31,149 bases of DNA. Origin: a virus. Position numbers and translations under genes: made by a program. The notes beneath the pieces were generated by a model that did no database searches, was not told the DNA's origin, and saw nothing but the letters and a program-made list of their open reading frames with translations. Location of the stretch: UHGV virus genome UHGV-0093339; one strand, given 5' to 3'. Position 1 is the first letter of the stretch; each line of letters starts with the position of its first letter. Positions 604 through 25,409 of the stretch are shown here, piece by piece.

Positions 604-1290
604 ATGACTGCTAACGTAACCCCATCTGTTTTTCATTTTGAATCAGAAGCAACCATTCGAGCCATTGTTATTGATGGAAATCCTTGGTTTGTTGCCAAAG
701 ACGTTATTAAAGCTCTTCAACTGACAAACCCCACTATGTCAATAAAATCTCTTGATGATGATGAAAGGGCTAAATTTAACTTAGGCCGTCAAGGCGAAAC
801 CAATATTATCAACGAGTCAGGCCTCTACACACTGATCCTCCGCTGCCGCGATGCGGTGACACCAGGCACTATCCCATACCGCTTTCGTAAATGGGTTACA
901 GGTGAGGTTCTTCCTCAGATCCGCCGCACCGGAAGTTACATTAAAAACTCGCTCCCGCAAGAAGAACGCATAAAGATGGTTGCCGACCAGGTAGCCAACG
1001 CCACGGCGTCAGCAGTGATGCAGGCAATGAAGATAGAGAACAAAACCTACAGCGCCCCACTGAAGCCCGGCTACCGTAGCCTGATTCATTCGCCGTCTGG
1101 TGTTCTCGGCCTGACGGAGAACTCACTGCTGATGAATCTGCTGAACCAGTTACAGGACGACGGGCACGACGTATCGGGAGCGGCGGCGGAGCTGACCACC
1201 ATGTTCTGCTACATCGTTGGTGTGAGCAAATGCCTGCGTGATATCCAGACCCACGCGGAGTACATCAACGACAAAGCAGGGTTCTTCTGA
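604..1290 (+). CDS. Bro-N domain protein, antirepressor-like
   Basis: ORF-track 451..1290, start trimmed to the ATG at 604 preceded by AAGGTGA; N-terminal segment FESEATIRAIVIDGNPWFVAKDVIKALQL matches the Bro-N pattern as I recall it. Confidence 0.7.
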   Translation: MTANVTPSVFHFESEATIRAIVIDGNPWFVAKDVIKALQLTNPTMSIKSLDDDERAKFNLGRQGETNIINESGLYTLILRCRDAVTPGTIPYRFRKWVTGEVLPQIRRTGSYIKNSLPQEERIKMVADQVANATASAVMQAMKIENKTYSAPLKPGYRSLIHSPSGVLGLTENSLLMNLLNQLQDDGHDVSGAAAELTTMFCYIVGVSKCLRDIQTHAEYINDKAGFF

Positions 1291-1356
1291 CGGGCGGCGG
1301 CACAGGGATGTGCCTTTAAAATAATCATTGGCGATGTGATGTAGATTCGCGTAATA

Positions 1357-1371
1357 TTACCTTAAAGGTAA
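1357..1371. promoter_or_regulatory. operator-like dyad TTACCTTAAAGGTAA abutting the RBS of the 1384 ORF
   Basis: Identical 15-mer to the site at 230-244; immediately followed by AGGAGG and the ATG at 1384. Confidence 0.45.
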
Positions 1372-1383
1372 AGGAGGCGCGAT

Positions 1384-1551
1384 ATGACAGCGTTGAAAAA
1401 TCGTACTCAGCACAATGAACAAGCCAAGCAATGCTGGGATGTCATTGGAAAAGTTATGCTTGGTCGCGCAAGCAAAGAGCGCGACAAGGATATGGTTTAC
1501 CAGACAGGAACATCTTTTAGCGACTTCAAGGCGGCATTTCGCTCCAAATAG
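1384..1551 (+). CDS. hypothetical small protein (55 aa)
   Basis: Read by hand: AAAGGAGG RBS 6 nt upstream of ATG 1384, stop TAG 1549-1551; translation MTALKNRTQHNEQAKQCWDVIGKVMLGRASKERDKDMVYQTGTSFSDFKAAFRSK; not in ORF track (short). Confidence 0.5.
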   Translation: MTALKNRTQHNEQAKQCWDVIGKVMLGRASKERDKDMVYQTGTSFSDFKAAFRSK

Positions 1552-1571
1552 AAGCACATCAGGAGTTTTCC

Positions 1572-2015
1572 TTGAAGTTTAACATTAGAATATCTAATAG
1601 TTTTCTACATGGGGAAAGCAACACCCCTTTCGCTGTAGACGGACCTTTCCTTACTGATGATGAAATAAAAATCATACAAAGGTTTTTAGAGGATGTTGCC
1701 AATGGAAGGGCGCTTGTTGGAAAAAACAAGCCCTCGTGGGTTGATGATAACCATGATAAAATTCCCGGCTCAGACAATTATGAGCAAGAGAATTATTGGC
1801 ATTATCATTGTGGGCCAACATGGTATCCAAACACATTTAAGAATTATACCATTAACTTAAATTTCAACCCTGGCGGAATGCATTCTAATGAATGCATTCA
1901 TTATGCAAAAAATGATAATGAAATTGTCATTGTTGGATTTTCAAGAGAACACATACCTTTCCTTTCATCAGATGGAAACAACAATCCGCTTTTTAATGAT
2001 GAAGAAGAAGAATAA
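1572..2015 (+). CDS. hypothetical protein (147 aa), AT-rich moron gene
   Basis: ORF-track 1572..2015 with TTG start 7 nt after AGGAG; markedly AT-rich codon usage compared with neighbours (by eye); acidic EEEE tail; terminator directly downstream; no family recognised. Confidence 0.6.
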   Translation: MKFNIRISNSFLHGESNTPFAVDGPFLTDDEIKIIQRFLEDVANGRALVGKNKPSWVDDNHDKIPGSDNYEQENYWHYHCGPTWYPNTFKNYTINLNFNPGGMHSNECIHYAKNDNEIVIVGFSREHIPFLSSDGNNNPLFNDEEEE

Positions 2016-2037
2016 GCCCGCGCTGCGGGATTTTTTG
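2016..2037 (+). terminator. intrinsic terminator after the AT-rich gene
   Basis: cccgc-gct-gcggg hairpin followed by TTTTTT, directly after the stop at 2013-2015. Confidence 0.6.
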
Positions 2038-2108
2038 TGGACGAAACAAAAGTCAGTGCTACACTCATTGACGCCACATTGAGGTGGCTTATAGATGGAA
2101 ATTTCACA

Positions 2109-2270
2109 ATGAAAAAAGCATTTGCTGCACTGTTCGTTTTGTTGTCTCTGGTAGCTTCAACTCAGGCCTTTGCCGGTCGTTGTCAGCACGACAGCGATAC
2201 TGCCGCTGACGGCTCCCGCTGCGGTGGGCGTTCTGCGGATTCCCGCCCGGGAGGCGGTGGCATTCGTTAA
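2109..2270 (+). CDS. hypothetical small secreted protein (53 aa) with signal peptide
   Basis: Internal ATG of ORF-track 2037..2270 (the listed start is a GTG inside the terminator); MKKAFAALFVLLSLVASTQAFA looks like a Sec signal peptide with an AFA cleavage site; Gly/Arg/Asp-rich mature part. Confidence 0.45.
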   Translation: MKKAFAALFVLLSLVASTQAFAGRCQHDSDTAADGSRCGGRSADSRPGGGGIR

Positions 2271-2301
2271 AAACAAGGCCGCGAAAGCGGCCTGTGACAT
2301 G

Positions 2302-2598
2302 TCACGTTCCTTTTCTGAATGCTAGCCATTCGAAAAATGATGACATTCCACCGCAGACAATAGCAAAGATGATCCCACCAAAGAAGAGAAGGCCAGCCTG
2401 CCACCACTCCCACCGCCATACATCCACAGCGCCAACCATACCAACAATCGCTCCAACAAATGGAATATAGCTCACGATGAAAGCAATGGGGGCTGCAATT
2501 ATCCAGTGCAATCCCCACCATGATTCAAGCCCAGCCATAATTGCTGCCAACTGAAAAAGACCAACGACGATATAAACAATGAATCCTATAGCTTGCAT
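2302..2598 (-). CDS. hypothetical integral membrane protein (98 aa)
   Basis: ORF-track 2302..2751 trimmed to the ATG at 2598 with AGGTGA 5 nt upstream; several hydrophobic helices and W-rich loops; last gene of the leftward virion operon. Confidence 0.55.
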   Translation of the reverse strand: MQAIGFIVYIVVGLFQLAAIMAGLESWWGLHWIIAAPIAFIVSYIPFVGAIVGMVGAVDVWRWEWWQAGLLFFGGIIFAIVCGGMSSFFEWLAFRKGT

Positions 2599-2794
2599 GT
2601 AGTCACCTAATTTACCCAGTAAAAATAAGAGGCCTCCCCTCAATAAGGCTTGCAACAAGAACGACTCCCTGCACAACAAAGATGAACCAGCAAATAGCTT
2701 GAGTCTGAGGGTTAAGAAAATATTTGTAGCGGTCAATAAATAACAATCCACCAGAAATTATCACACTCAAAATAATTAAAAACACAACACTTCC

Positions 2795-5269
2795 TTATTG
2801 CGGAGTGACATCCTGTGGTCGCCACCAGTATGTCTGGTTAAACTCTTTCTTCGAACGTTGCTCCATTTTACGCAAATAACCTGGTGAAAAATACTCCTGC
2901 ATCTGGTTAAAGATCATGTGATCGAGAGCCGCCTTTAAGTACCAGAGATTCGCACCTGGCATCAGACCTTTCCCCAGCTTAACCAGATCACCACCAGTCT
3001 GCTCATTCTTCCCTTCCACAGCATTTAACGGTATGCCCTGAGCAATCTTCACTACGTCATCAACCAGACCAGCTACCGGGCCAAGCATCGACGCCAGCGC
3101 GCCGCTTCCGTACCTAGTGTGATCTGACAATAAAAAGTCACCGTAAAGGCCAAGACCACCACCTTTCAGTAGAGCACCAAGCCAAAATTTAGCAGCATCT
3201 TCTCCTGTCATCTCGCGAGGATTACGACCAGACGCAAGGTCGTTAAGTTGCTGCGACAAAGCGCCAAGAATGGTCGTACTGGCAATAAACGTCGCAATAT
3301 ATGCCGCACGCCCACCAGCAGACGGCATACCCATAGCGCGTGACCAGTGACGCATAACCACCGAGATAGGGAACGATTTAAACAGGAAAACACTTCTCGT
3401 TAATTCACCTTTCCATGTTCCACGCTGAATACCAGAACCGGTTATCAGTTGCTCACGTGCTCCCGGTGTAATAACAGCCATATCAACTTCTTCAGTTACG
3501 GCACCGAGCAGTTTACGCATTGCCTCAAATTTCACGCGTTCAGGCTCACCAAGATGTTTAACTGCTGAATCAGGGATACGCATAATGCTTTCCGGTGTCA
3601 GCATCGTATTATTGCCGTTCCCCCAGTCCTCCTGTTGCGCCAGCTTCCATACGCTCCAGTCTGTGTCAGTAATCCCTTTGCTTTTCAGGATACGAAAATC
3701 AGAATCATCGAGGCTACGAAGGTCTGGTGTCCGTGACACTACTTCTCCCAGGCTTCCCATCATGGTTACGCCATAGGCGCGCTTGTGCGCATCTGACCAT
3801 GCTGTAAGCCCACTGGCACGCATCACCGCCGTTGCAGCCCAACGAGACACAGACGGCCCCATATTATCCATCGCCCAGCGGTTAACGCTGCCAAGTAGAG
3901 ATTCCATCGCCAGACCAGCGCGGCGCGCCCGCGCAAGTTCTGTACGGTTCGTTGGGTCCATAGCTTCAAGCTGGTTGCGGAATAACTGGTTCATTGGAAG
4001 GTTGGTAACCTTCGCAGACAGATACATGGTTCCAAGATCAGAGAACGATGACAGCAACGCGGATCCGAGTCTGCTGGCAACCAGCCAGTTGCGGATATTG
4101 TCAGACCATCGCGCGATGTGCGGATTCGCTACAGGCTGTGTCTTTCCGGAAATAAAGTTGTACAGATTCTCTGTGTTGTTCGCCAGCCGCTCGACTTTAC
4201 CGGTTTTACTCGGGTTAGCTGTTGCCGTTTCTGCCTTCACCTGATCAAGAAGAGAGCGGAAAACATGATCGGGGTTTGGGCCATATGTTTCCACCAATGC
4301 AATATCTTTACTGATACCTTCAAGGTGACCGACCATGATTTCCCATAGAGAGCGATCGCCATAAAGTTGCTGATATTGCAGATAGGAATCTGCATCTTTG
4401 AAATGTATCTGTCGTGATGCATTACCACGGTTAGCACGTGCGCCGGAAATTCGCATTCCGGTATCAGTAAGCTTATTCAGCCCACCAGTAGCGATCGTGT
4501 TATAAGCCTCTCCAAGAAATGCAGACAACTCGGCATCGTTCATCAGTTGTCCATCGGCTAGGGTATAATATTTGCGATCCAGCTTACCTATAACATCGCT
4601 AACCCATTTATCTTTTGATACCGCCCCAACCTTTTCCATAGAATGATGTTGAGGGATCCCCCAGTTTTCGAGATAGCCAGTGTCCCCACCAGCATCATTA
4701 AACCGGCGGCGCAGCAGCTCTGTAACTTCTCTCCACGCCTTAGCACCTTTTCTTGCTTTAGCATTGCCAGTATTTTGCCCCCGCATTTCATATACCAGGT
4801 CACGTACGCCCGCTTCATCTTCAAACAGACCAAAAAAGCGAGGATCAACTGCTTCGAATGCCTCCTGCAATTGACTCAATGCATAATCACGGGTGGCTTT
4901 TGTTCTGGATTCAACAGAGAGGAAATTCGATTTACCGTCTGCATTAAAAGCAATAGTACGGTTAAGAGCGCCAAGTTTCCCATCAGCCCCTTGATAGCTA
5001 TTGATAAATTTATCCAATCTCTGACGTGCGGCTATAGTGAGGGCCACACGACGTTTCTTTAATGCCGCTTCTCGCTGTAATTCTTCAGATGCCAATTGTG
5101 CTGCACGATACAACCGTTCTGATTCGGAAAGTTGTCGCCACGACATCGGGTCATCACGAGCAATGGAGCGCATATTTCGATAAATGCGGTCTTCAATGTT
5201 CTGTATTTCTCGCGCCGTTAACGTGCGCTGCGCCGCCTGCTGGACCGCTTGTATACATTCCTGTCTCAT
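2795..5269 (-). CDS. virion internal/ejection-type protein (824 aa), putative
   Basis: Long ORF with GAGAGG RBS; position after the other large virion genes in a T7-like order; assignment by position and size only. Confidence 0.5.
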   Translation of the reverse strand: MRQECIQAVQQAAQRTLTAREIQNIEDRIYRNMRSIARDDPMSWRQLSESERLYRAAQLASEELQREAALKKRRVALTIAARQRLDKFINSYQGADGKLGALNRTIAFNADGKSNFLSVESRTKATRDYALSQLQEAFEAVDPRFFGLFEDEAGVRDLVYEMRGQNTGNAKARKGAKAWREVTELLRRRFNDAGGDTGYLENWGIPQHHSMEKVGAVSKDKWVSDVIGKLDRKYYTLADGQLMNDAELSAFLGEAYNTIATGGLNKLTDTGMRISGARANRGNASRQIHFKDADSYLQYQQLYGDRSLWEIMVGHLEGISKDIALVETYGPNPDHVFRSLLDQVKAETATANPSKTGKVERLANNTENLYNFISGKTQPVANPHIARWSDNIRNWLVASRLGSALLSSFSDLGTMYLSAKVTNLPMNQLFRNQLEAMDPTNRTELARARRAGLAMESLLGSVNRWAMDNMGPSVSRWAATAVMRASGLTAWSDAHKRAYGVTMMGSLGEVVSRTPDLRSLDDSDFRILKSKGITDTDWSVWKLAQQEDWGNGNNTMLTPESIMRIPDSAVKHLGEPERVKFEAMRKLLGAVTEEVDMAVITPGAREQLITGSGIQRGTWKGELTRSVFLFKSFPISVVMRHWSRAMGMPSAGGRAAYIATFIASTTILGALSQQLNDLASGRNPREMTGEDAAKFWLGALLKGGGLGLYGDFLLSDHTRYGSGALASMLGPVAGLVDDVVKIAQGIPLNAVEGKNEQTGGDLVKLGKGLMPGANLWYLKAALDHMIFNQMQEYFSPGYLRKMEQRSKKEFNQTYWWRPQDVTPQ

Positions 5270-5274
5270 TTAAT

Positions 5275-7077
5275 TTAACCTCTCAAGAAACACGCCACAG
5301 CAACATCAAACAGGCTGGAATCCTGTATTGCCTGCTCACTTTCCCTGTTCGCTTCATCCAGTACTTCACGCGCACTGCGCGATTGTGGATTACCATCATC
5401 ATCCAGCACGGTGATTATCATGTCAGGTGATTCAAGCAGCGAGTCTTCAGCTATGCGCAGATCAATATCTCCTGCCTGATCTGACATCATTTTTTGTTCT
5501 GCCTGTTGCAATATTTTATCAGGCTCAAAAGGAGCTACTTCGTCTGGCGTCCTGACCTCTGCTGTTTTATAGAATGAAACAGCCTGAGCATTAAGTTCAC
5601 TTTCTGCCTGCTGTCTCCGAGCCAGTTCTGCTCGAGCTTCAAAAAACTGACCGCCAGGCTCGTGCGGTGCCAACGCGTTACGGGAAAATTCCAGGCGTTC
5701 TTGTGCCTGCCGGATTCGTTGATCAATATCGCGAAGTCTGGCCTGTTTATCTGATCGAGCACGAGACAAAGCTTTACCGCTACCGGTTGGCTCTTCTGCA
5801 AGAATTTGTGCACGCTGTTCAGTGAGATTTTCAATAATTCGTTGGCTATTAGCGATTTCAGACTGGTAAACCTGTCTATCTCCACGCGGCAAAAGCTGCG
5901 CGGCCTGTTCTTCAAGCAACCGATTTTCTATAGCGCGCGCCGTTACTCCATCATCTACAGATGACAGAGCCTCATTAACTGCCTGAGACAGCAGACTCTT
6001 GCGCCCAGGAATTTCACTGAAAGATGCAGACTCAACAATGCTGGCAACGTCTACAGGTCTCCCCTGGCTAACATCAGACATAGCTTTTCGCAGAGCCTGA
6101 ATGTGAGAATTGCGCGAAAGCACGTTGATCGGCACGCCGGGCGCAATATCAATTTCAGCATGATGAGCGGCATTCGCCGCCAGTGCAGCATCGATATCAA
6201 CTGGTGAAAAATTTGGTGCGTTTGTAGACTCGCCGCGAGAGTTAATAAATCTGCCGACACCACCAAACGCCACCCCAAGAACAGCATCAATAGCAATTGC
6301 CTGTCGATCCAACACATCATACTGGTTAGCCATTTCGCTATAGCCACCATCACGAAGTGTTTTTGCAGTAAGCCCACGCTGTGCCATACCGAACGCAATA
6401 TTTGTACCTGCGGCATAGGCAATATCTGGCGTTGCACGTACTGCTGTTGCTGCGGCGCGTCGCACTGAACTCTCACCCGTCCGCGCAAGCTGAGCCGCCA
6501 CACCTTCCGCCAGCGCACCACCAGCACGTAACCCGAGGCTCATAGGGATCAGCGTTCCGGCACCAGCAGTAATGCCCTGCACTAATCCCGCTTCCTGCGC
6601 CGTCCTGAAATCAACACCCTGTGCTGTCAGCCGTTCAAACTCAGAAAAACCCTGTAGCGAAGTTACCGCCGCTGCACCTCCGGCAGGACCACCGAGCGTT
6701 GTACCGACAACAGCCTGCCCGCCCATATCGAACAACCCATAAAGAACCTGCCCAGCGGTTCCGGTTGTCGCGGCATCAGGCGTCAGCCGCTTAACCTGCT
6801 GCTCTGCTAGTTTTCTCTGCTCGGCAATGTATGAAACTGAAGTATCATTGAGCGAGGTGTTTTCGTTAACAAACTGAGCAATCGGGGATACGATTTTATC
6901 CATCCCTGCCCATAGCAACTGATCTGGCTTTGCCACCAGCCCGGAGTACAAACCAGACAATGCCGCTCCTACAGCATTGTCGAAAAAACCAACATCGCTG
7001 TTAAAGCCAGCTGGATTTGATGCTGCTTCGTCAAGCTGCTGATTCTGGTTTACTGGATTAAGGCCAAAGTAACTCAT
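5275..7077 (-). CDS. virion internal/ejection-type protein (600 aa), putative
   Basis: ORF-track; start ATG overlaps the upstream stop (ATGA); Ala/Gly-rich with coiled-coil-like C-terminal part. Confidence 0.5.
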   Translation of the reverse strand: MSYFGLNPVNQNQQLDEAASNPAGFNSDVGFFDNAVGAALSGLYSGLVAKPDQLLWAGMDKIVSPIAQFVNENTSLNDTSVSYIAEQRKLAEQQVKRLTPDAATTGTAGQVLYGLFDMGGQAVVGTTLGGPAGGAAAVTSLQGFSEFERLTAQGVDFRTAQEAGLVQGITAGAGTLIPMSLGLRAGGALAEGVAAQLARTGESSVRRAAATAVRATPDIAYAAGTNIAFGMAQRGLTAKTLRDGGYSEMANQYDVLDRQAIAIDAVLGVAFGGVGRFINSRGESTNAPNFSPVDIDAALAANAAHHAEIDIAPGVPINVLSRNSHIQALRKAMSDVSQGRPVDVASIVESASFSEIPGRKSLLSQAVNEALSSVDDGVTARAIENRLLEEQAAQLLPRGDRQVYQSEIANSQRIIENLTEQRAQILAEEPTGSGKALSRARSDKQARLRDIDQRIRQAQERLEFSRNALAPHEPGGQFFEARAELARRQQAESELNAQAVSFYKTAEVRTPDEVAPFEPDKILQQAEQKMMSDQAGDIDLRIAEDSLLESPDMIITVLDDDGNPQSRSAREVLDEANRESEQAIQDSSLFDVAVACFLRG

Positions 7078-9587
7078 TGCGGAATATCTCCGGAGAATCT
7101 CTGACGCTTCTGTGTCAGATTAAGAACAACGGGAGAACCATCATCTTTCAGCAGATAACCAGTACCAAGTTTCACCAGGTACTGACTATCGCCGTAACTT
7201 TGCAAACCATACTGACCAGGCGGTGTTTTTATCCCAGAGCCGACAACTTGTTCATTCCAAGCCTGATTAACCTGCTTATCGAATTGCTCTGCAGACATTC
7301 CCCACGGCAAAAGGACATTCCCCATTCCGTTATAGTCATGCACGCCACCTGTAGCTACGTTAACAGCCTGTTTCCAGACATCATTGTCAATTTCGCCTGA
7401 TACCACGCCTTTTTTCGCCATCACACCAGCGTAATAATCCTTTGCGATCTCGTATGCCATTGATGCCCCCTGAGCGTCACCAGCAAATGCATCCTTCACC
7501 ATGTCAGAAAACTCAAGGCGAAGATCAGCATCTTTAGGCATCGGAATACCTTTCGCATCATCAGTACCTTTACGAGCCGCCGCGCCAGCAAGAATTGTCT
7601 GCGCAGCGGTTTCAGGAGACACGGAAACATCCGGATTAAACCAGTTTTTTTCTGCCAAAATACCACCGGGCTTATCCATCAGTATCCCGGCAACGGCAGC
7701 AGATGGAGCGTTGGCACTGATCTGCTGTAGTGCTGACATATACACCTGCCCACCACCAGTGCTCTGCCTGATGGTATCGAGATATGCTGCCTGTTGGGAA
7801 ACTGGAGCATCACGAAAGAAAACACCGATCTGATTGGCCTCGTCTTTGGAAAAGAACGTCAGTGGAGTGCCATATGACTTAGCAAGGTCACTGACCTGAG
7901 CGGCACGCAAGGCAACGCTCTGTCCAAAGTTATCCTTATTGCTCATGTCGATAGGCTTTGCCTGTCCGGAGGCAAGAGAGAACTGCACAGGATCCGACTG
8001 CCGCTGCTTTATCACCTGATTTGCAGCCGAAACAACGTTGTCATAAAGAGCTGCGCGTGCCGCATACCCCTCCCCTGTATCACCAGTATCCGGGCGTAAT
8101 TGCTCAACATATGCTGTAATGCTGCTTGTCGGCATGTTGCGGAAAGAGCCTATATACTGTCCGGCGATTTGCGTATTTCTGAACTCGGTATATCGCAGGC
8201 TTCCTTCTCTTACTCCATAAGCTGCAATAAAATCAGCCTCACCAGGTGGGTTAGGAAATTCAACGCCACGCATATACGCAGCTGTCGCATCGCGAACCTG
8301 GCTGTCAATCATCGTTTTATATTCAGCCTGCTGCTGCCGACGCAGTTGATCCGCCTGTCGCATAAAACTTGCCTGCGCCTCAGGAGATGCCGCATCGAAT
8401 GCTGCATTACCGGTATAGCGTTTGGTGTTGGTTGGAATTGTTGATAAACCAAGTGCTGCACTGACACCAGCAGTTAACTGCTGATCACTGTATGGCTGGC
8501 TACCGTTCTCATGATGGATAATGGCTGCACAAAGCGCCTTCAGGGTATCAGGATTAGATGCATCGAGAGGCTCATCAGCAGAAACGCCAAGTTGTTCGCA
8601 CACTGCTTTGATATACGACATAGTGTCATTTTTATCAGTAGGCGGTGCCCAGCGATTAATTATCTCGCTGACGGTATCAATACCCTGCCTCTGATACGAC
8701 ATCAGGTTTCGCCCTAATGCACGAATCCCGTGTTCAGGTGTTTCGAATTTAGCAAATCGACCATCATCACCGGTCTGGCCTACCCACGGATTAGTTTTGC
8801 TGTATTCGAGATTTCCTGGGTTATTGTTGCGTATGCCACGGGCACGCTCGGAAGAGTCACTATCTGCTACAGCACGGCGAGCTCCAGCAGCAGTATCACT
8901 TAACTCGCCATTACTTTGGATGAATGCGGTCGCATTGTTTGCCGACCACTGGGACAATGCGGCATCAGCAACCTTCTCTTTAAACTCGACTTTCTTGGCC
9001 TGGATTTGCTCGTCGCTCCAGCCATGCGCAATGCCGTAATCCTCAATTTGCTGGAAAGTTTGCTTATTAGCCAATACGTATGCGGCGTTGTCGCCATACA
9101 ATGCTGCGGCATTTTTACCATTGTTCAGCAGCGTAGCCTGAAACTGGCCTTCTTCGTAGGCGTTTATTTGCCCTATCTCGTGCCGCCCTGCCTGCGTAGT
9201 GAACTGAATGCGCTGCTGCTGCGCCTGCTGCATGAAAGCATTACGAGCCTGTTCATCCGGCAGCGACATAGCCAGTTGTTCGACCTGAGCATCAAACTGC
9301 TGCGTATACTCATGGCCTTTTCCAATAGCATTTTTCCCTTTCAGGTTAAGCAACCCTGTTTCAGGGTTATTCAGCAGATCGCTGCTTATCTGACTGAGGT
9401 TAAGAGATGCCTCCTGAGCCAGAGCGATATTGGCACGCTGTTTTGCCTGACCAAAAACATCAATAGTCTCTGCCCCTGCCCGAACAAAAGCATCACCAAT
9501 ACCTGGCTGAGAAAACGTCTGCAAGCCTGCTGACTGAACTCCACGGCTCTCAACCTGACGTCCGGATACTGTTGGTACGACTGGCAT
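7074..9587 (-). CDS. virion internal protein (837 aa), putative
   Basis: ORF-track 7074..9662 trimmed to the ATG at 9587, which overlaps the upstream stop (TAATG) and follows GGAGGA; contains the segment GIRNNNPGNLEYSKTNPWVGQ that I could not assign to a family. Confidence 0.5.
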   Translation of the reverse strand: MPVVPTVSGRQVESRGVQSAGLQTFSQPGIGDAFVRAGAETIDVFGQAKQRANIALAQEASLNLSQISSDLLNNPETGLLNLKGKNAIGKGHEYTQQFDAQVEQLAMSLPDEQARNAFMQQAQQQRIQFTTQAGRHEIGQINAYEEGQFQATLLNNGKNAAALYGDNAAYVLANKQTFQQIEDYGIAHGWSDEQIQAKKVEFKEKVADAALSQWSANNATAFIQSNGELSDTAAGARRAVADSDSSERARGIRNNNPGNLEYSKTNPWVGQTGDDGRFAKFETPEHGIRALGRNLMSYQRQGIDTVSEIINRWAPPTDKNDTMSYIKAVCEQLGVSADEPLDASNPDTLKALCAAIIHHENGSQPYSDQQLTAGVSAALGLSTIPTNTKRYTGNAAFDAASPEAQASFMRQADQLRRQQQAEYKTMIDSQVRDATAAYMRGVEFPNPPGEADFIAAYGVREGSLRYTEFRNTQIAGQYIGSFRNMPTSSITAYVEQLRPDTGDTGEGYAARAALYDNVVSAANQVIKQRQSDPVQFSLASGQAKPIDMSNKDNFGQSVALRAAQVSDLAKSYGTPLTFFSKDEANQIGVFFRDAPVSQQAAYLDTIRQSTGGGQVYMSALQQISANAPSAAVAGILMDKPGGILAEKNWFNPDVSVSPETAAQTILAGAAARKGTDDAKGIPMPKDADLRLEFSDMVKDAFAGDAQGASMAYEIAKDYYAGVMAKKGVVSGEIDNDVWKQAVNVATGGVHDYNGMGNVLLPWGMSAEQFDKQVNQAWNEQVVGSGIKTPPGQYGLQSYGDSQYLVKLGTGYLLKDDGSPVVLNLTQKRQRFSGDIPQ

Positions 9588-14829: not shown

Positions 14830-14880
14830 CTTCTTTCTCCATTAGTGGGTCTGTTACGACCCACAGGTTAATAACAGGCG

Positions 14881-16671: not shown

Positions 16672-16761
16672 ATCAATGACTCCGTACGCAATTAAATTAT
16701 TACCAATTTAACCACATATGATTTATTTATCGTAGATAGTTGACATTTAACGCACAAATTA

Positions 16762-16776
16762 TTACCTTTCAGGTAA
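16762..16776. promoter_or_regulatory. operator-like dyad TTACCTTTCAGGTAA upstream of the head operon
   Basis: Perfect TTACC-N5-GGTAA; a TTGACA hexamer on the plus strand lies at 16740-16745. Confidence 0.4.
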
Positions 16777-17098
16777 CCAAAGAGTTCATTCCGGTTACTA
16801 ACCTGACTGGCTTGTCGTTAAATTGAACAGGTGGAGTGAGCTTTTATTTTGAGCAGTACGGCGTATGGCACATGCGCCGATAGCGGTCTGGATACGTTTA
16901 AGGGGCACCCTCCCTTGCTCGGGCAAACGAACCAGGTAGCCGGAATGTGCAAGTCGAGCGGTTTTATTCCGCGCACGGGGATTCACCATCCCGGCGATTC
17001 GGTGTGACGCCTCGGAAGAGACGAGGGTACAACGATGAGAGCATTTATGGAGCCGCGACAAAGTGTGGTGCCTTAACAGGCTAAGTGCTCTCAGCGTT

Positions 17099-17175
17099 GT
17101 GGCATTAGCTCAGTTGGACAGAGCAACCGCCTTCTAAGCGGTTGGTCGCAGGTTCGAATCCTGCATGCCACGCCA
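17099..17175 (+). tRNA. tRNA-Arg (anticodon TCT)
   Basis: Cloverleaf folded by hand: 7-bp acceptor stem gtggcat/atgccac, D-arm gctc-agttggaca-gagc, anticodon stem accgc/gcggt with loop cttctaa (anticodon TCT at 17133-17135), T-arm gcagg-ttcgaat-cctgc, discriminator G and encoded CCA. Confidence 0.85.
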
Positions 17176-17218
17176 GAATCACGCCTAAGGACCGTGATGC
17201 CAGAAGTTCCAGGGGCTT

Positions 17219-17260
17219 GGCGGTGATGGTTTCCCTTGAAGGACTATCACCGCCCTTTTT
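17219..17260 (+). terminator. putative intrinsic terminator downstream of the tRNA
   Basis: ggcggtgat...atcaccgcc stem followed by TTTTT. Confidence 0.5.
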
Positions 17261-17338
17261 ACAGCAGGACGCCATTGCGATGACTTCATGCTGTAAACCA
17301 GTACAGCCACGGAAGGCATAACTCATTGCTTCCAGTTC

Positions 17339-17362
17339 GCCCGGTTCGCCGGGCATTTTTTT
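17339..17362 (+). terminator. intrinsic terminator
   Basis: gcccgg-ttcg-ccgggc hairpin followed by seven T. Confidence 0.6.
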
Positions 17363-17378
17363 AAGGTGAGATTAGACT

Positions 17379-17750: not shown

Positions 17751-17840
17751 CACCGTGACATATCACAAACAGCCAGCCTATGAGCTGGCTTTGTTTTATC
17801 CTCATCAGAGGATATCAACAACATTATCCCCTCAAGCGGA

Positions 17841-19316: not shown

Positions 19317-19945
19317 TGATTACCATCCTGACGTTCTTTGAGTCGCTTCCTGGCTGCTGCTATGCGATCAGCAATTGTCACATTCACATTAACATCCAGG
19401 CGTTCTTTGAATGCGTTGACGTCGACGTGCTTACCGATGAGCTCGAGGTTTTTCACCTTGTCGGGCCATTTCACCTTCTTCAGGATATGCTCGACATCCT
19501 CAACAGAGAGATCCGCCTCGCCATTCTCTTTTTGCAGGGAAGCCTGGGTTGTCTTGATGGTAGCGATATCCATAGCACTGAGAGAGGTACGCCAGACCTT
19601 CGGCCATTCAGCGATCGGCTTCATCCCGCCGTCATCGTTCAGTATATCCAGCACGTCCATCTGGTCTATTTCCACCAGGCGCATGAGAACGTAATCAGCA
19701 CTGACGCGCATTCGTTTGTTGCGCTCCTCCATCAACTCGGCAATCCGTTTTTGAATGCGTTCATCGCGCATCATGACACTGGCTTTAACTGCCGCTGTAT
19801 TTGGGGAGAATCCTGCATTAATCGCTGCCTGAGTCTGGTTTTCAGGCGTTTTGATGTATGACTGGCAATAAGCCTCCTGCATTGCTGTTAGTGGCTTAAA
19901 TTGCGTTGATTTGCGTTTATAGGTTTTAGGTTCAGCAGGCATCAT
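19313..19945 (-). CDS. terS: terminase small subunit
   Basis: ORF-track 19313..20023 (listed start is a TTG) trimmed to the ATG at 19945; sits immediately upstream of terL; resembles small-terminase proteins from memory. Confidence 0.65.
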   Translation of the reverse strand: MMPAEPKTYKRKSTQFKPLTAMQEAYCQSYIKTPENQTQAAINAGFSPNTAAVKASVMMRDERIQKRIAELMEERNKRMRVSADYVLMRLVEIDQMDVLDILNDDGGMKPIAEWPKVWRTSLSAMDIATIKTTQASLQKENGEADLSVEDVEHILKKVKWPDKVKNLELIGKHVDVNAFKERLDVNVNVTIADRIAAARKRLKERQDGNQ

Positions 19946-19952
19946 AACCACC

Positions 19953-19984
19953 GTGGTAATAGTTACCGTTGTGGTAATAGTACC
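19953..19984. repeat. tandem 14-bp repeats GTGGTAATAGT(T)ACC upstream of terS
   Basis: Two near-identical copies at 19953-19967 and 19971-19984; each has internal dyad symmetry (GGTAA-TAG-TTACC and TGGTA-ATAG-TACCA). Confidence 0.5.
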
Positions 19985-19986
19985 AT

Positions 19987-20014
19987 GCAAAATAAAGCCG
20001 CCATAGTTGGCGGC
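19987..20014 (-). terminator. intrinsic terminator upstream of the packaging genes
   Basis: gccgcc-aactat-ggcggc hairpin followed on the minus strand by TTTATTTT. Confidence 0.55.
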
Positions 20015-20063
20015 AGTATTCAAAACCCATCAAATTCATCATGCATAATCTACTCGTGACATG

Positions 20064-20402
20064 TCACACTATTAATTTCGTTTCATGCCAGCCTTTAGTC
20101 ACCCAGCATTGCGAGTCACCATTACACGGGCATGAATTCACAGGAACTCTCTCGCCGCACTTACCGCAACGTTTTCTGCTGATCGATTTTATACGCCCGT
20201 GCGCGCGAGCATCATCCTGGCGGATAAGTAACGCAATATACTCACCAAATTCGTAAGGCACACGCCCGGGGCGACGCGTGGCGCAGTTCCGCTCCAGCAT
20301 TTCAATTTCCTGAGCATCAAGCACAATCTCCAGCTTACGTACACCGGATGCAGCTTGTCTGGCTCTCTGAGCGGCTTTGCGCTCTGCTGCTGATTTAGCC
20401 AT
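20064..20402 (-). CDS. hypothetical Cys-rich protein (112 aa), possible late-gene regulator
   Basis: ORF-track; basic N-terminal helix plus C-terminal cluster CGKCGERVPVNSCPCNGDSQC; sits directly upstream of the terminator and the terS repeats. Confidence 0.5.
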   Translation of the reverse strand: MAKSAAERKAAQRARQAASGVRKLEIVLDAQEIEMLERNCATRRPGRVPYEFGEYIALLIRQDDARAHGRIKSISRKRCGKCGERVPVNSCPCNGDSQCWVTKGWHETKLIV

Positions 20403-20760: not shown

Positions 20761-21944
20761 CACTTAACCTCCTGCTGCGGTGCTGCTGGCATTTCACGCC
20801 AGTGCGTAACTGAGTGCGGATCCGGATATTCGGTGCCATCATCCCAGCGATTGCCATTCCACATTGCAGACCACATCTCACCGTCTTCATACATGACCAT
20901 TACCGGAATTAACTTATCCGGCATTCGCTCACTACAGCTTATCCAACCATCCGGAATTACCGGAGAGTTGCCATTTACCAAGTCAGCTCGAACATATAGC
21001 GTGTCATCATGGTGCTGATTGTGGCTGCACCATGTTAATTCGCTTAACTCGCCATCTTCTGGCCATACTCCAGCTGTTTGCAGCCAGATATGGGCTGGCG
21101 CATCCTGGCAAGGTGTATTAACTGGAAACTTGTAAGTTTGGCTTACAGGTTGGCTACCCTGAAGCATGGCAGCGTGGCAGGCATACTCAACGCCCTTAAC
21201 TGCATCTGCGCAGTAGTTATAGCGATTGCATTCCACTAATTTCCGTTTGAGTTTTTCAATTGCCTGCGCGACATCAGCCTGTATTACAGGAACTGGCGGA
21301 ACGGCTGTTTGCTCTCGAACGTCATTAGTCGCTATCGGTTCTGCTGCCAACTGACTGGCATATTTGTTAATGGTAACGATAAGCTCTTGCTCAGCCTCAT
21401 CCAGACAATCACCGATACCTCGCCTGTCACCGTCAAAATCATCGAAATCGGCACGAATCTTGGCAACCTTCAGGATTGCGGACAACACCTCACTAGGAAT
21501 TACCGGATAGTTGGTTGACGTTTCCGCGATTTCCCGAAAATTATTGGTTGACGAATTCTTGTTTTCCCGAAAGTTTCCGGACTGAAGCATGGCGGCGCGA
21601 TAGGCGTTCCAGCCGACAGCTTTTCCGTGTTCAAACGCGCTGTCAAAGTCATCATCAATTTCCATCGCAGCGGGCACAGATACCGGCGCCGGATGGGCGG
21701 TGTACAAGCGAGTTCCATCCTTGAAGTTTTCCCAATCAGCCTGTCCATCAGCGGCTATGCACACCACCTTCGCATCCGGGTGGCATCCGCAATCGTCATA
21801 CTCACCGAGGACAACCTCGCCAACAGCCTCCGCTTCGAGCAATGCCAGCGCGATACGCGCCAGCTCTGCAATTTCTTCGCCGAGAATAGCCCCGACATTT
21901 TCACGTCTGGATAATTCCGTCAGTCTCTCTTTGGTGAATGTCAT
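20760..21944 (-). CDS. DUF551 domain protein with Ea22-like N-terminal region
   Basis: ORF-track; GGAGG RBS; C-terminal segment ...WISCSERMPDKLIPVMV...THWREMPAAP resembles DUF551 from memory. Confidence 0.55.
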   Translation of the reverse strand: MTFTKERLTELSRRENVGAILGEEIAELARIALALLEAEAVGEVVLGEYDDCGCHPDAKVVCIAADGQADWENFKDGTRLYTAHPAPVSVPAAMEIDDDFDSAFEHGKAVGWNAYRAAMLQSGNFRENKNSSTNNFREIAETSTNYPVIPSEVLSAILKVAKIRADFDDFDGDRRGIGDCLDEAEQELIVTINKYASQLAAEPIATNDVREQTAVPPVPVIQADVAQAIEKLKRKLVECNRYNYCADAVKGVEYACHAAMLQGSQPVSQTYKFPVNTPCQDAPAHIWLQTAGVWPEDGELSELTWCSHNQHHDDTLYVRADLVNGNSPVIPDGWISCSERMPDKLIPVMVMYEDGEMWSAMWNGNRWDDGTEYPDPHSVTHWREMPAAPQQEVK

Positions 21945-21947
21945 GGG

Positions 21948-22478: not shown

Positions 22479-22479
22479 A

Positions 22480-23142
22480 TCACATCACCCTGAAGCCGTT
22501 GCATTTACGTAAAAAATCGCAGATATAGCCCTTCATTTTTTCTTGCCAATCTCGATCATTCCCATTGCACCAACCATCAGGTGGAGTCCAGTTTTCTATC
22601 AGAGCAGCCATTTTCTTTGCTTTCGTCGGAGTAGCTGTTGCGGTATCACATACGACCCAGTACATAACCGGATGTCGCCACGGGAATCTTTCGGGACCAC
22701 CAGGATATAAACTTTTTTCCTTGCTGTACCGGTGAAACTCCGCCATCACATCGTCAATGGTGACGCCAAGAACCATCTTGCTGTCTTTACACCACTTGAT
22801 GAATTGCCCTGGCGACGGCCAGAACGGAGACTCACTGGCGCGGGCGTGGCGCATACCAGCAGAAACCTGTTCACGGGTTCGGATCCCCCCTTCGGCAAAC
22901 GCAGCAATCCACTGCTGTTTTGCAGCAACTTCCTGCTCTGGCGTCTTCAGGTTGGTTACCACTGCCGCCGGAAACAGTTGTTTCAGCTGTTTGAAAAGGG
23001 CATCAACAAGCCTCTCTGCTGACATGTTCACCACGTTGTCATTGTTGGTGTACTGATGCTCATAACCTGACATGCGAGAAAGGGCTTCTCCGTCACGGTT
23101 TTGTATCGCGGTAAAAACGTTGTTCACAAGAAATCCTCCCAT
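22480..23142 (-). CDS. replication protein P homolog (helicase loader)
   Basis: Segment QLFPAAV...QQWIAAFAEGGIRTREQVSAGMRHARASESPFWPSPGQFIKWCKD parallels lambda P (...QWVLAFRENGITTMEQVNAGMRVARRQNRPFLPSPGQFVAWCRE) from memory; start overlaps the O-like gene. Confidence 0.75.
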   Translation of the reverse strand: MGGFLVNNVFTAIQNRDGEALSRMSGYEHQYTNNDNVVNMSAERLVDALFKQLKQLFPAAVVTNLKTPEQEVAAKQQWIAAFAEGGIRTREQVSAGMRHARASESPFWPSPGQFIKWCKDSKMVLGVTIDDVMAEFHRYSKEKSLYPGGPERFPWRHPVMYWVVCDTATATPTKAKKMAALIENWTPPDGWCNGNDRDWQEKMKGYICDFLRKCNGFRVM

Positions 23143-23939
23143 GCTTCAGGGCTGTTCCAGTGCGGAACGTTGTTATCAGGTAATGTTGATTGCTTCTGTC
23201 TGCTAATCTGCAGCCGCCTTGCCAGCTTCTGCTCCCACTGTGCCTGATGGTATGCCTTACCCTCAGCCATCCAGTAAATTCTGAACTCTGCAAGTTCCTG
23301 TGCCGTTGGCAGACTGTCCAGGTAGATCCCCTGCAATGAGCTTTTCCGAAGAAAGTCATCTGATGGCTGCCATTGTTCATGCATGACAAATTTGCCTAAT
23401 TGCCCTGGCCCACCAGGAGGAACAAAGTTATTCATCACGGCGTTGTTTGCGCCGGGGTCATGATGCACAGAATCCCCGTTTTTTGTCCTGCTCTCCCTCT
23501 CTTGGTTAAATGACTGGTTATATGACTGGTTCTGGATCCCGTTTTTGGGATCATTCAACATCCCGTTTTTGGGATCATTCAACATCCCGTTTTTGGGTAT
23601 ATTCCCGTTTTCGGTAACATTACCGTTTTCGGGTTCATTGCCCCCCTCCCGGTTGCCTTTAATGTTCCCGTTTTTGGTTATATTAAGAGAGAAAACCCGC
23701 ACTCTTTTTGTCGCTCCCTTTCTCTCTCCGGTATCTGAAATAAGCCCCATTTTCATGAGCGATATAAGCCCGGCCTGCACGGTTTTTTTATTCAGGCAAG
23801 TGTCTTTAACGAGGCGTTCTATGCTGGGGTAGCAGAGGTTATATTCATCGGCTCTGTCAGCCATCGAGAGCAGTATGAGCTTTAATGATGAGCTACCTGG
23901 ATCTGTCTCCCAGGCCCAATCTGTTGCATGTCTGCTCAT
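23124..23939 (-). CDS. replication initiator, lambda O-like
   Basis: ORF-track; GGAG RBS; N-terminal HTH-like region; central peptide repeats (PKNGMLNDPKNGMLNDPKNG) encoded by the DNA iterons at 23536-23684; immediately upstream of the P homolog. Confidence 0.65.
   Translation of the reverse strand: MSRHATDWAWETDPGSSSLKLILLSMADRADEYNLCYPSIERLVKDTCLNKKTVQAGLISLMKMGLISDTGERKGATKRVRVFSLNITKNGNIKGNREGGNEPENGNVTENGNIPKNGMLNDPKNGMLNDPKNGIQNQSYNQSFNQERESRTKNGDSVHHDPGANNAVMNNFVPPGGPGQLGKFVMHEQWQPSDDFLRKSSLQGIYLDSLPTAQELAEFRIYWMAEGKAYHQAQWEQKLARRLQISRQKQSTLPDNNVPHWNSPEAWEDFL
23536..23684. repeat. candidate replication origin: iterons with core CCCGTTTTTGG
   Basis: atcccgtttttgggatcattcaac at 23536-23559 and again at 23560-23583, then degenerate copies (cccgtttttgggtatatt, ccgttttcgg twice, ttcccgtttttggttatatt), all inside the O-like gene. 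Confidence 0.6.
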
Positions 23940-23954
23940 GATTAATCTCCGCTA

Positions 23955-24155
23955 TCAGCTTGAATGTTGTGGGGAGGAATTAATCATGATCTGCTTAATC
24001 TCTGCCCTGATGCGACGGTTTGATTCCATGGTGCACTCAACACAGTGTCCGTTGTAAACCCAGCGTTCACTGTCATGTCCGTGCTTACATGGTTTTCCGG
24101 TGTAGTAGCGTTTAAGTCCGCGCTTTGCGGCATCAATACGTGTAATGATTTCCAT
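23955..24155 (-). CDS. hypothetical Cys/His-rich small protein (66 aa)
   Basis: ORF-track 23955..24218 (listed start is a TTG) trimmed to the ATG at 24155; motif KPCKHGH...GHCVEC; occupies the cII position between the Cro-like and O-like genes. Confidence 0.45.
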   Translation of the reverse strand: MEIITRIDAAKRGLKRYYTGKPCKHGHDSERWVYNGHCVECTMESNRRIRAEIKQIMINSSPQHSS

Positions 24156-24235
24156 GGTAAGCCCTGTTATTAGTATTGGGATTACGGTTATTTTGTGCTG
24201 ACACAAAAAAAAGATCAACCAGATTTGGTTTTTTA

Positions 24236-24250
24236 TTACCTTTGAGGTGC
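24236..24250. promoter_or_regulatory. operator-like half-conserved dyad TTACCTTTGAGGTGC
   Basis: Left half-site perfect, right half GGTGC as in the OR site at 24604-24618; lies between the Cro-like gene and the 66-aa gene next to a gaccg...cggtc hairpin. Confidence 0.3.
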
Positions 24251-24305
24251 GAATAGATATGAAAAGACCGCCGGATGACGGTCTACAGAGGGTTGTGGCT
24301 GGATA

Positions 24306-24536
24306 TCATGAGTAGAAGAAGTATGCCAGTTCTGCTTTTGAGCGCAGCCATTGTCTTGTTTTACAGGCTTTAAAAAGCCCATTCATCAATACCTTACCTG
24401 GCATTTTGCGCTTACCTGTTAAGTGAGTCTGGATATAGTGACTCGTCGTTCCGGCTTCCTGTGCGAAGGCTTCACGCTCATCCGGAGTAAGTGCAAGCCA
24501 GTGCTTTTTGAAATCGAAATGTCCGTTATCGCTCAT
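24306..24536 (-). CDS. Cro-like HTH regulator (76 aa), putative
   Basis: ORF-track; HTH-like segment REAFAQEAGTTSHYIQTHLTGKR; transcribed divergently from the CI-like gene across the operator cluster. Confidence 0.55.
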   Translation of the reverse strand: MSDNGHFDFKKHWLALTPDEREAFAQEAGTTSHYIQTHLTGKRKMPGKVLMNGLFKACKTRQWLRSKAELAYFFYS

Positions 24537-24572
24537 AGCTATTGCCTGATATTTATTTCAGATAATAAATAT

Positions 24573-24635
24573 TCACCCATAAGGTAACAAAAATCAAGGA
24601 TAGTTACCCATGGGGTGCATTTACCTGTTGGGTAA
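24573..24635. promoter_or_regulatory. OR-like operator cluster, three dyads between the divergent Cro-like and CI-like genes
   Basis: Sites at 24573-24587 (tCACC-cataa-GGTAA), 24604-24618 (TTACC-catgg-GGTgc) and 24621-24635 (TTACC-tgttg-GGTAA); a leftward TTGATT -35 candidate at 24597-24592. Confidence 0.6.
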
Positions 24636-24690
24636 TATTGCTTTAAATTGAATCATCTACTGATTCATATATGAGGCGATTTTCCAGAAA

Positions 24691-25275
24691 ATGAAAAGTA
24701 TCCAGGACGTCCGCAGGCAAAATCTCAACGACTTGATCGACCGTGAATTCAATGGTGTTCAGACGCGGATGGCAGAAAAACTTGGAACTCAGGCAAATCT
24801 GGTAAACCGCTGGGCTCTTGGCAAGAAGGTTATCGGCGACCAGGTTGCGCGAAAAATTGAAGCTGCCGCCAATAAACCCCGTAACTGGCTTGATATCGAT
24901 CGCTCGCTTTCTCAGGAAGGTTTTCAGCCTGTCGGACCAAGCGACATTGGTCAACTGGCGGCTCACAACCTGGAACGCTGGATGAGCGAAAGCCGCGACC
25001 TTTCAACACAGGGAAAACTTCACCGCGCATCCGGCGTCGCCCAGGTGACAATCAGCCGCCTGTTAAACAATGAGGTCAGCGTTTCCATTTCCACCCTGGA
25101 GAATGTTGCATCCGCATTCGGGCGTCACGGCTATGAATTACTGATTCACCCGCACGACCCTGCGACCATCAACTATGACCGCTCGCGCTACGCATTGTTA
25201 CCCGAAACCGAGAAAGCAAAGATCGAAAGTTACATTGAATTTGTCATCAACCAGAACGAAAAAAACAAACAATAA
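24691..25275 (+). CDS. CI-like prophage repressor with two HTH domains and no peptidase domain
   Basis: ORF-track; two XRE-type HTH-like segments (QTRMAEKLGTQANLVNRWALGKK and LHRASGVAQVTISRLLNNEVSVS); no Ser/Lys autocleavage module seen; flanked by operator clusters and followed by a terminator. Confidence 0.6.
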   Translation: MKSIQDVRRQNLNDLIDREFNGVQTRMAEKLGTQANLVNRWALGKKVIGDQVARKIEAAANKPRNWLDIDRSLSQEGFQPVGPSDIGQLAAHNLERWMSESRDLSTQGKLHRASGVAQVTISRLLNNEVSVSISTLENVASAFGRHGYELLIHPHDPATINYDRSRYALLPETEKAKIESYIEFVINQNEKNKQ

Positions 25276-25297
25276 AATCATACTTTTCAGTAAGTAA

Positions 25298-25320
25298 GCC
25301 GCCTTCTGGCGGCTTTTTTA
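25298..25320 (+). terminator. intrinsic terminator after the repressor gene
   Basis: gccgcc-ttct-ggcggc hairpin followed by TTTTTTT. Confidence 0.7.
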
Positions 25321-25332
25321 CTGCCTGTTCGA

Positions 25333-25409
25333 TTACCTGTCGGGTAATTTTTTTAACTCATATCTATTGACATCAAACCAAATACGAATAATCATTACCT
25401 CAACGGTAA
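25333..25409 (+). promoter_or_regulatory. PL-like early promoter with two flanking dyad operators
   Basis: Perfect dyads at 25333-25347 (TTACC-tgtcg-GGTAA) and 25395-25409 (TTACC-tcaac-GGTAA) bracket TTGACA at 25367-25372 and an A/T-rich -10 region around 25387-25395. Confidence 0.6.

Follow-up and report, generated by a model that had tools for sequence, protein, structure and literature searches.

The virus genome UHGV-0093339 was analysed as one stretch of 31,149 nucleotides (the window), which its sequence identifies as most, about 31 kb, of an Escherichia coli prophage of the Uetakevirus kind (phiV10/ε15/SPC32H-like). The switch of this prophage probably combines a repressor of the SPC32H type (Rep) with two antirepressors. 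One is a small antirepressor gene (ant) under LexA control, situated beyond the left edge of the window. The other is the gene at 604-1290, which joins a Bro-N domain to a domain resembling the SPC32H antirepressor (Bro-N::Ant) and would be gated by Rep and by the antisense RNA C4.

The repressor region of the window is 98% identical at the DNA level to that of Uetakeviruses (ε15-like podoviruses), Escherichia phage phiV10 among them. The gene order of phiV10 is the same as that of the window, in the opposite orientation. In the prophage of E. coli ML35, the aligned segments are 100% identical to positions 53-25000 of the window, and ML35 has approximately 3.5 kb of extra DNA.

The Repressor and Its Operators

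The 194-residue Rep protein matches only helix-turn-helix (HTH) families in Pfam, namely HTH_3 at residues 106-147 (E 1.2e-9) and, weakly, YdaS/HTH at residues 21-61. A match to Peptidase_S24, the module carrying the Ser-Lys dyad, was not obtained in Pfam at E≤0.1. Residues 1-190 align end to end with the solved SPC32H repressor (PDB 5D50_A, E 4e-42), and the second half of the protein matches the separately solved C-terminal domain 5D4Z. Since the two domains of 5D50_A account for all of Rep, there is no space for a peptidase module. This bears out the original prediction, which had described two HTH-like segments without an S24 module. The RecA-stimulated self-cleavage that it had considered unlikely appears implausible, as the alignment to 5D50_A leaves no cleavage module. 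With phiV10 p40 Rep shares 100% identity, and with the SPC32H Rep 42% (tblastn).

The dyad ATTACC-N5-GGTAAT occurs at 12 sites in the window when up to two mismatches are allowed, against 0.82 expected, and none of 100 shuffles reached this number. Two of these putative Rep operators lie in the leader of the Bro-N gene (229-245 and 322-338), where a phage dyad operator had indeed been predicted. The position of the second, next to the -35 hexamer of the leader promoter, is kept in phiV10, Tyrion and most relatives in IMG/VR. Across these relatives the half-sites are conserved and the 5-nt spacer is free to vary (TTTAC, TTTGC, TCACA, AAAAT). Most of the relatives checked also carry an operator at the place equivalent to 1356-1372. 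On the side of the Cro-position gene, which is divergent from rep, there is a leftward promoter-like site at 24590-24562.

Further dyads are scattered outside the immunity region. They are located before a moron-like gene cluster (1356-1372), before a head-region gene (16761-16777), at the start of the terminase small-subunit gene (19944-19978) and upstream of the integrase (30946-30962). The same scattering of operators is seen in phiV10, SPC32H and Tyrion, and recalls the multi-operator layout of P1 C1.

The Bro-N Gene and Its Ant-Like Domain

The Bro-N gene proposed at 604-1290 is confirmed by a match of residues 18-104 to PF02498 (E 5.2e-20; 72.3 bits against a Pfam cutoff of 25.6), and several PHROG "anti-repressor" families match its product. 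The assignment as an antirepressor is made because of the C-terminal domain and not the Bro-N domain. Residues 147-223 match the chain named "Anti-repressor protein" in PDB 5D50_E (E 1.9e-13) over residues 3-79 of 86. This Ant-like domain is 38-42% identical to SPC32H Ant and to phiV10 p24 (tblastn), and an alignment has revealed invariant columns that it has in common with the stand-alone Ants. It also matches phrog_450 (6e-36), with PHROG 450 carrying the label "unknown function". The only Ant-like sequence in the window is this one, fused within the Bro-N gene. The gene is predicted to encode a second antirepressor, with both Rep and the leader RNAs acting as its gate.

The Ant-like domain was found in 32 of 50,697 phage records, almost all of them Uetakeviruses, and nearly all of the 32 also have an SPC32H-type Rep. 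Uetakeviruses of E. coli, and some of those of Enterobacter and Klebsiella, have two or three copies of the domain, among them a fused and a stand-alone form. In the Salmonella phages there is a single copy.

It has been reported that overexpression of the Bro-N ORF4 of phage ZX5 takes prophage titres from 1e9 to 1e6, reduces transcription of the repressor and lowers lysogeny (PMC9782041). The phiV10 record labels its Bro-N gene "putative anti-immunity protein". This gene, p23 (19551-20230), is frameshifted in the Ant-like domain, and its displaced C-terminus seems to be the tiny p22; in O157 typing phages 9 and 10 the match likewise falls into two pieces. Near its Bro-N cassette, TL-2011b also has a P22-type "anti-repressor Ant", an Arc-like repressor and a YafO toxin (6426-7610 of the comparison sequence L003). 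This brings the total in TL-2011b to three antirepressor-type genes.

The Leader RNAs

The leader of the Bro-N gene runs from a predicted promoter through an IsrK-type small RNA and the C4 antisense RNA to a C4 target region over the Shine–Dalgarno (SD) sequence of the antirepressor gene (Table 1). The Rfam isrK model begins at 374, and the spacing from promoter to isrK equals that of Gifsy-1. The c4-a1b1 model (RF03163), with a gathering score of 46.7, matches positions 361-413 at 45.1 bits (E 7e-10) and so falls short by 1.6 bits. The predicted fold of C4 is consistent with the consensus structure. Both copies of the target box, a1 and a2, are held in a hairpin with the six-base loop UUGGCG. 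An ATG at 451, in frame with the Bro-N gene, opens a 279-residue ORF through C4; it was rejected as the main start, as it has no SD sequence and abuts the U-tract of the terminator. The part of this frame at 451-603 probably arises incidentally from the GC-rich structure of the leader.

The pairing between C4 and its targets was assessed by comparison across natural cassettes. Searching IMG/VR with a pattern fixed on the a' region gave 120 loci, and 65 unique loci with 32 classes of hairpin-2 loop were analysed. The longest exact complement of a locus's own loop downstream has a mean of 8.35 nt, compared with 2.66 nt for swapped loops (maximum 3.58 in 200 permutations). Upstream, the corresponding means are 7.0 and 3.09 nt (maximum 3.85 in 200 permutations). 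The downstream match lies from a few to about 15 nt before a start codon and covers or adjoins the SD sequence. This covariation gives strong comparative support to a functional pairing of the loop with the ribosome-binding site (RBS), and to the view that the loop variants represent specificity classes.

Behind the C4 cassettes lie short ORFs, or genes whose products begin with a pRha, ORF6N or Bro-N domain and in some cases also have P22_AR_C. Bro-N::Ant is preceded by just two loop classes, GTCCTTTGTAG and GTCCTTTTAG. At least 32 C4 loops, each with a matching box at the downstream RBS and usually upstream too, make up an extensive natural collection of orthogonal antisense/target pairs.

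The LexA Box and the Left Edge of the Window

The reported lack of a LexA box upstream of the Bro-N gene was upheld. A position weight matrix (PWM) was built from E. coli LexA sites, and its training sites score at least 12.9 bits. The matrix was validated only by the phage LexA boxes, which score 24-28 bits with it, and by its agreement with a plain consensus scan. Within 1-603 there is no CTGT-N8-ACAG at up to one core mismatch, bar a match at 481-496; this was set aside as a chance match, GC-rich and within the C4 RNA. The top PWM score over 1-1400 is only 2.8 bits. The whole window reaches 11.1 bits, whereas the maximum in 40 shuffles averages 11.4 bits, so that nothing stands above chance. 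Perfect CTGT-N8-ACAG cores at 14851 and 17291 were also rejected, with PWM scores at or below chance (10.2 bits at 17289) and no promoter there.

The window begins in an insertion sequence (IS). In 1828 E. coli genomes, positions 1-52 recur at 100% identity at 5511 places, and these matches adjoin a gene for an "IS5-like element ISKpn26 family transposase". In relatives that are free of the IS, phage DNA carries on leftward at the base matching position 53. As the window starts in the IS, it spans the prophage from there to the integrase end; the tail-fibre, O-antigen-modification and lysis segment is not in the window. The listed ORF 30..209 extends into the IS element.

The DNA beyond this edge can be followed in the relatives. 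In ML35 and 118UI, an operator (ATTACCTTTTAGGTAAT), a perfect LexA box of 28 bits (TACTGTATAAATATACAGTT) and then an 85-residue ant are found 873 bp to the left of the equivalent of position 53. The product is a homologue of SPC32H Ant. The same module of operator, LexA box and small ant is present in phiV10, SPC32H, TL-2011b and Tyrion, and in all seven of the related IMG/VR contigs that have enough upstream DNA. The small ant of the relatives adjoins a tail-fibre gene. Likewise, the GenBank record of SPC32H has rep and an 86-residue ant, the latter beside the tailspike gene. Upstream of SPC32H ant there is a perfect LexA box along with a dyad of the Rep type, as there is upstream of phiV10 p24, and the ant LexA box is the only strong one in the complete genomes of phiV10 and SPC32H. 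In Tyrion, gp21 (54 residues; 21439-21603 of the comparison sequence L127) is the small ant annotated without its N-terminal part; tblastn aligns 82 residues (21690-21445), and it sits behind the LexA box TACTGTATAAGCATACAGTG.

The missing LexA box is therefore best read as an effect of the window edge. In SPC32H, Ant synthesis is reported to follow the self-cleavage of LexA in the SOS response, and Ant to inhibit the repressor by protein–protein contact (Kim & Ryu 2013, as summarized in PMC7380047). The Rep tetramer binds palindromic DNA and is broken by the Ant tetramer, according to PMC9638917. The induction route is the SPC32H route already known (PMC7380047, PMC9638917). The non-classical induction that had been proposed for this prophage thus stands in part. 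The route is non-lambda, and the Bro-N gene appears to be wired to the repressor, through the putative operator at the -35 hexamer, and to the leader RNA, through IsrK/C4 and the SD pairing. Independence of SOS is not supported, given the LexA box and ant to the left in ML35, 118UI and all seven IMG/VR relatives.

A weak LexA-like site of 12.1 bits (TACTGTGAATATAAATAGAT) was seen at 4036-4055 of the comparison sequence L004, approximately 70 bp upstream of the strong box on the tail-fibre side. The gene cut by the IS encodes a hypothetical protein of 242 residues; in ML35, 118UI and TL-2011b it separates the small ant from the Bro-N cassette. phiV10 and Tyrion are without this gene, and their small ant is directly beside the cassette. 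Elsewhere in the window, a tRNA-Arg(UCU) gene (17099-17175, + strand) is overlapped on the opposite strand by a homologue of the phiV10 ORF p04 (17105-17356, - strand), which is probably not a real gene.

Table 1. Features of the immunity regions and left edge of the window. Promoters, operators and the terminator of IsrK are predicted.
Feature	Position	Strand	Basis or remark
Two-domain antirepressor gene, Bro-N::Ant (predicted)	604-1290	+	Bro-N at residues 18-104; SPC32H-Ant-like at residues 147-223 (nucleotides 1042-1272)
Sigma-70 promoter "PisrK"	339-367	+	TTTACA-17-CATAGT with upstream TG; predicted start ~374
IsrK-type small RNA (C4 a1/b1 target region)	374-450	+	Rfam isrK RF01394, 76.8 bits (gathering 50)
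Box a1, UUGGCGU	399-405	+	Bases 1-6 of the box are the loop of hairpin 394-409
Box b1, CUACAGAGG	415-423	+	Pairs with C4 loop b', one G-U
Intrinsic terminator ending IsrK	431-450	+	Terminator prediction
C4 antisense RNA	469-555	+	Rfam RF01695, 79.5 bits (gathering 45), full-length model
C4 antisense loop b' (hairpin 2), CCUUUGUAG	512-520	+	9-bp perfect complement to b2
Single-stranded a', ACGCCAA	527-533	+	7-bp pairing with UUGGCGU at 559-565 and 399-405
C4 target region a2/b2 on the mRNA	555-598	+	Hairpin 555-568; a2 UUGGCGU at 559-565
Box b2, CUACAAAGG	587-595	+	Overlaps SD AGGUGA (593-598) of ATG 604
Putative Rep operator, perfect dyad, ATTACCTTAAAGGTAAT	229-245		Between the divergent 242-residue gene and the Bro-N leader; conserved in relatives
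Putative Rep operator, ATTACCTTTACGGTAAA	322-338		Abuts -35 hexamer (339-344) of the leader promoter
Putative Rep operator	1356-1372		Just 5' of the RBS of + strand genes 1384-1551 and 1572-2015
Rep, SPC32H-type two-HTH repressor, 194 residues	24691-25275	+	Pfam and 5D50_A alignment; terminator 25296-25315
Cro-position gene, divergent from rep	24306-24536	-	phrog_35 "transcriptional repressor", 5.6e-13
Putative Rep operator, divergent rep/cro region	24620-24636		Dyad scan
Strong early promoter, TTGACA-17-AATCAT	25367-25395		Flanked/overlapped by two putative Rep operators
Two putative Rep operators	25332-25348, 25394-25410		Flank/overlap the early promoter; the 25394 site overlaps it
Terminal 52 bp of IS5-like ISKpn26-family element, left edge of window	1-52		100% matches; neighbouring transposase gene
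5' remnant of 242-residue hypothetical gene, cut by IS	53-209	-	WP_021537563.1, intact in ML35 and 118UI

Comparison with Known Systems

On the repressor side, this system parallels the Rep/Ant pair of Salmonella phage SPC32H (Kim & Ryu 2013 J Virol; Kim et al. 2016; PDB 5D50, 5D4Z). The two repressors are homologous over their full length, with two HTH segments and no S24 module, and SPC32H has the same scattered ATTACC-N5-GGTAAT dyads, 12 of them at up to one mismatch. An Ant-homologous domain is also common to both, and the relatives of the window share the operator, the LexA box and the small ant by the tail-fibre gene. The systems differ in that the Ant-like part of the window is fused to Bro-N and is placed under an operator-bearing promoter and C4/IsrK, without a LexA box. 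SPC32H has no Bro-N/C4/IsrK cassette, and the stand-alone, LexA-controlled ant of the window's lineage lies off the window.

The immI region of phages P1 and P7 is a c4-icd-ant operon, transcribed from the promoter P51 under the C1 operator Op51, and the primary repressor, like that of the window, is non-cleavable and has multiple scattered operators. An operator is found at the promoter of the antirepressor operon, the place of the putative operator 322-338 in the window, and, as in the window, the C4 RNA comes from the leader of its own target. The arrangement is also alike, with a1/b1 upstream, a2/b2 downstream, b2 over the RBS and the antirepressor gene 3' of it. The window differs in that it is without an icd-like coupled ORF, and the direct pairing partner of the C4 loop is the antirepressor gene's SD sequence. 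Its antirepressor is of the Bro-N plus SPC32H-type Ant composition, a terminator follows a1/b1, and its repressor is unrelated to C1.

The isrK-orf45 (STnc1160)-anrP-isrJ region of Gifsy-1 has isrK/c4-a1b1, C4, the a2 hairpin (CCGAUUGGCGUCGG) and b2 over the RBS in common with the window. Experiments on Gifsy-1 have shown that the IsrK terminator is read through, that the antirepressor-like gene is translationally activated in trans by the short IsrK, and that prophage induction is brought about by AnrP (Hershko-Shalev et al. 2016, PMC4825925). In Gifsy-1, however, a 45-codon ORF overlaps C4 and is coupled to anrP through an AUGA overlap, whereas the frame in the window has 15 codons. AnrP is of the ORF6N type and not a Bro-N::Ant protein, the Gifsy-1 promoter is without a Rep-type dyad, and the window is without a downstream isrJ.

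In E. coli phage vB_EcoP_ZX5, the ORF21 repressor is reported to be identical to phiV10 ORF40 (Li et al. 2022, PMC9782041), which equals the Rep of the window. Overexpression of ZX5 ORF4, the anti-repressor, promotes the lytic state (PMC9782041). The C-terminal domain of ORF4 is 98.9% identical to that of the window, whereas its N-terminal Bro-N part is mosaic relative to the window. The ZX5 paper gives no account of the C-terminal part as Ant-like, of a C4/IsrK leader, of operators or of a small ant under LexA control (PMC9782041).

Tum of phage 186 and the antirepressors of Gifsy and Fels-2 are similar in that a LexA-repressed antirepressor acts on a non-cleavable repressor. The proteins are unrelated, and their equivalent in the lineage of the window is the small SPC32H-type ant, not the Bro-N gene. 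An SPC32H Rep/Ant pair and a C4 cassette of the P1/Gifsy type are both known kinds of system; to our knowledge, their combination has not been explicitly described before.

Proposed Circuit and Alternative Explanations

In the proposed circuit, lysogeny would be kept by Rep bound to the ATTACC-N5-GGTAAT dyads at approximately ten places in the window, and induction would proceed by antirepression and not by cleavage. In the lysogen, Rep would shut the leader promoter, and C4 processed from leaky transcripts would block ribosome binding at the SD sequence. DNA damage would lead to cleavage of LexA, production of the small Ant and the disabling of Rep. With the loss of Rep the leader promoter would open, and IsrK, which has the same target boxes, would compete for C4. 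Bro-N::Ant could then be translated and reinforce the inactivation of Rep, provided that the fused domain binds this Rep, and so act as an amplifier in a feed-forward latch. The C4 loop would provide a second, RNA-based immunity specificity.

It is conceivable, though it can be put forward only tentatively, that this amounts to a two-stage relay general to the Uetakeviruses of E. coli, Enterobacter and Klebsiella, in which one Rep-binding domain is used twice under orthogonal control. The LexA-gated 85-residue Ant would come first, and Bro-N::Ant, once above a threshold, would lock in lysis or give entry to it independently of SOS. The variable C4 loop would then be an RNA-encoded layer of immunity.

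Several points weigh against a second antirepressor working in this way. The fused domain is frameshifted in phiV10 and in O157 typing phages 9 and 10, so that the gene is dispensable and an amplifier role not essential. At only 38-42% identity to the stand-alone Ants, the fused domain might target another repressor. The exact junction of IS and phage found no match in complete E. coli genomes, IMG/VR or GTDB representatives, which leaves the left flank of this prophage unseen, and the small ant may have been deleted with the IS insertion in this particular copy. In the leader, the frame equivalent to orf45 and icd has a conserved AUG at 473 and only 15 codons, with its UAG stop (518-520) within the b' loop. 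Regulation may therefore differ in detail from that of Gifsy-1 and P1, in which translation passes through the upstream ORF (orf45, icd). An ORF coupled in this manner was rejected as the main route on account of the early stop. The antirepressor gene has an SD sequence of its own; since the frame ends after 15 codons, C4 would act directly on that SD. Energy-based scans for duplexes between parts of C4 and successive tiles of the window were not discriminating, as GC-rich stems dominate, and they were replaced by exact complementarity with the swapped-loop covariation control. The promoter, the function of the operators and the processing of the RNA are predictions only.

It is unlikely that the Bro-N antirepressor is itself the primary inducer, released through its own repressor or the leader RNA with no LexA step, for instance in stationary phase or by the effect of low Mg2+ on IsrK, on the model of Gifsy-1. 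The LexA box and small ant are located just upstream in every relative with sequence there, and the leader promoter bears a Rep operator and so cannot fire first unless it is leaky. The frameshifted fused domain of the viable temperate phages phiV10 and typing phages 9 and 10 also speaks against it, as does SPC32H, which is without a Bro-N cassette and reportedly needs only its LexA-controlled Ant (PMC7380047, PMC9638917). What favours such a route is the window itself, with no LexA box, and the homology of the cassette to isrK-anrP of Gifsy-1, where IsrK and AnrP give SOS-independent induction in stationary phase (PMC4825925). ZX5 lysogens, moreover, induce spontaneously at high titre, and overexpression of ORF4 lowers lysogeny (PMC9782041). 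If the IS insertion deleted the small ant, this would be the sole route remaining in this copy.

Less probable still is a role in trans, by which Bro-N::Ant would act on other prophages or incoming phages and bring about anti-immunity or cross-induction, in the manner of P22 Ant, P1 Ant and the Gifsy antirepressors, and the resident C4, chiefly an immunity determinant, would silence the ant of superinfecting relatives. The divergence of the fused domain from the cognate small Ant (38-42% identity) fits such a role, as do the 32 C4 loop specificities with matching targets, which heteroimmunity classes would be expected to have. The phiV10 annotation "putative anti-immunity protein" and the antirepressor cross-talk documented in Salmonella (PMC7380047) point the same way. 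The Rep operator on the promoter nevertheless links the gene to the phage's own repressor, and overexpression in ZX5 hit the cognate phage, with the same Rep (PMC9782041). A role in trans is also compatible with the circuit of two antirepressors and not exclusive of it. It is very improbable that the Bro-N protein is instead a DNA-binding regulator or a toxin-like moron, with a merely structural similarity to Ant, and that Rep is inactivated by other means such as a host protease. The function of the Bro-N domain is poorly defined and PHROG 450 is labelled "unknown function", but the match to the Ant chain of the solved Rep–Ant complex is near full-length and almost every one of the 32 phage records with the domain also has an SPC32H-type Rep. 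The effect of ORF4 in ZX5 (PMC9782041) and the antirepressor-type genes (pRha, ORF6N, Bro-N, P22_AR_C) behind other C4 cassettes also argue for an antirepressor.

Implications

The apparent antirepressor without SOS wiring arose from the way the window is cut, and the prophage joins the experimentally characterized SPC32H family of switches. Three systems that are usually handled apart, namely SPC32H Ant, P1 immI and Gifsy-1 IsrK, are now linked. This provides a concrete, testable circuit in which one antirepressor domain is placed under LexA control and again under the control of the repressor and C4/IsrK. The pairing partners are defined to the nucleotide and are backed by natural covariation of loop and target. 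Such a circuit could explain the commitment to lysis, or the high spontaneous induction, of widespread E. coli prophages of the gut.

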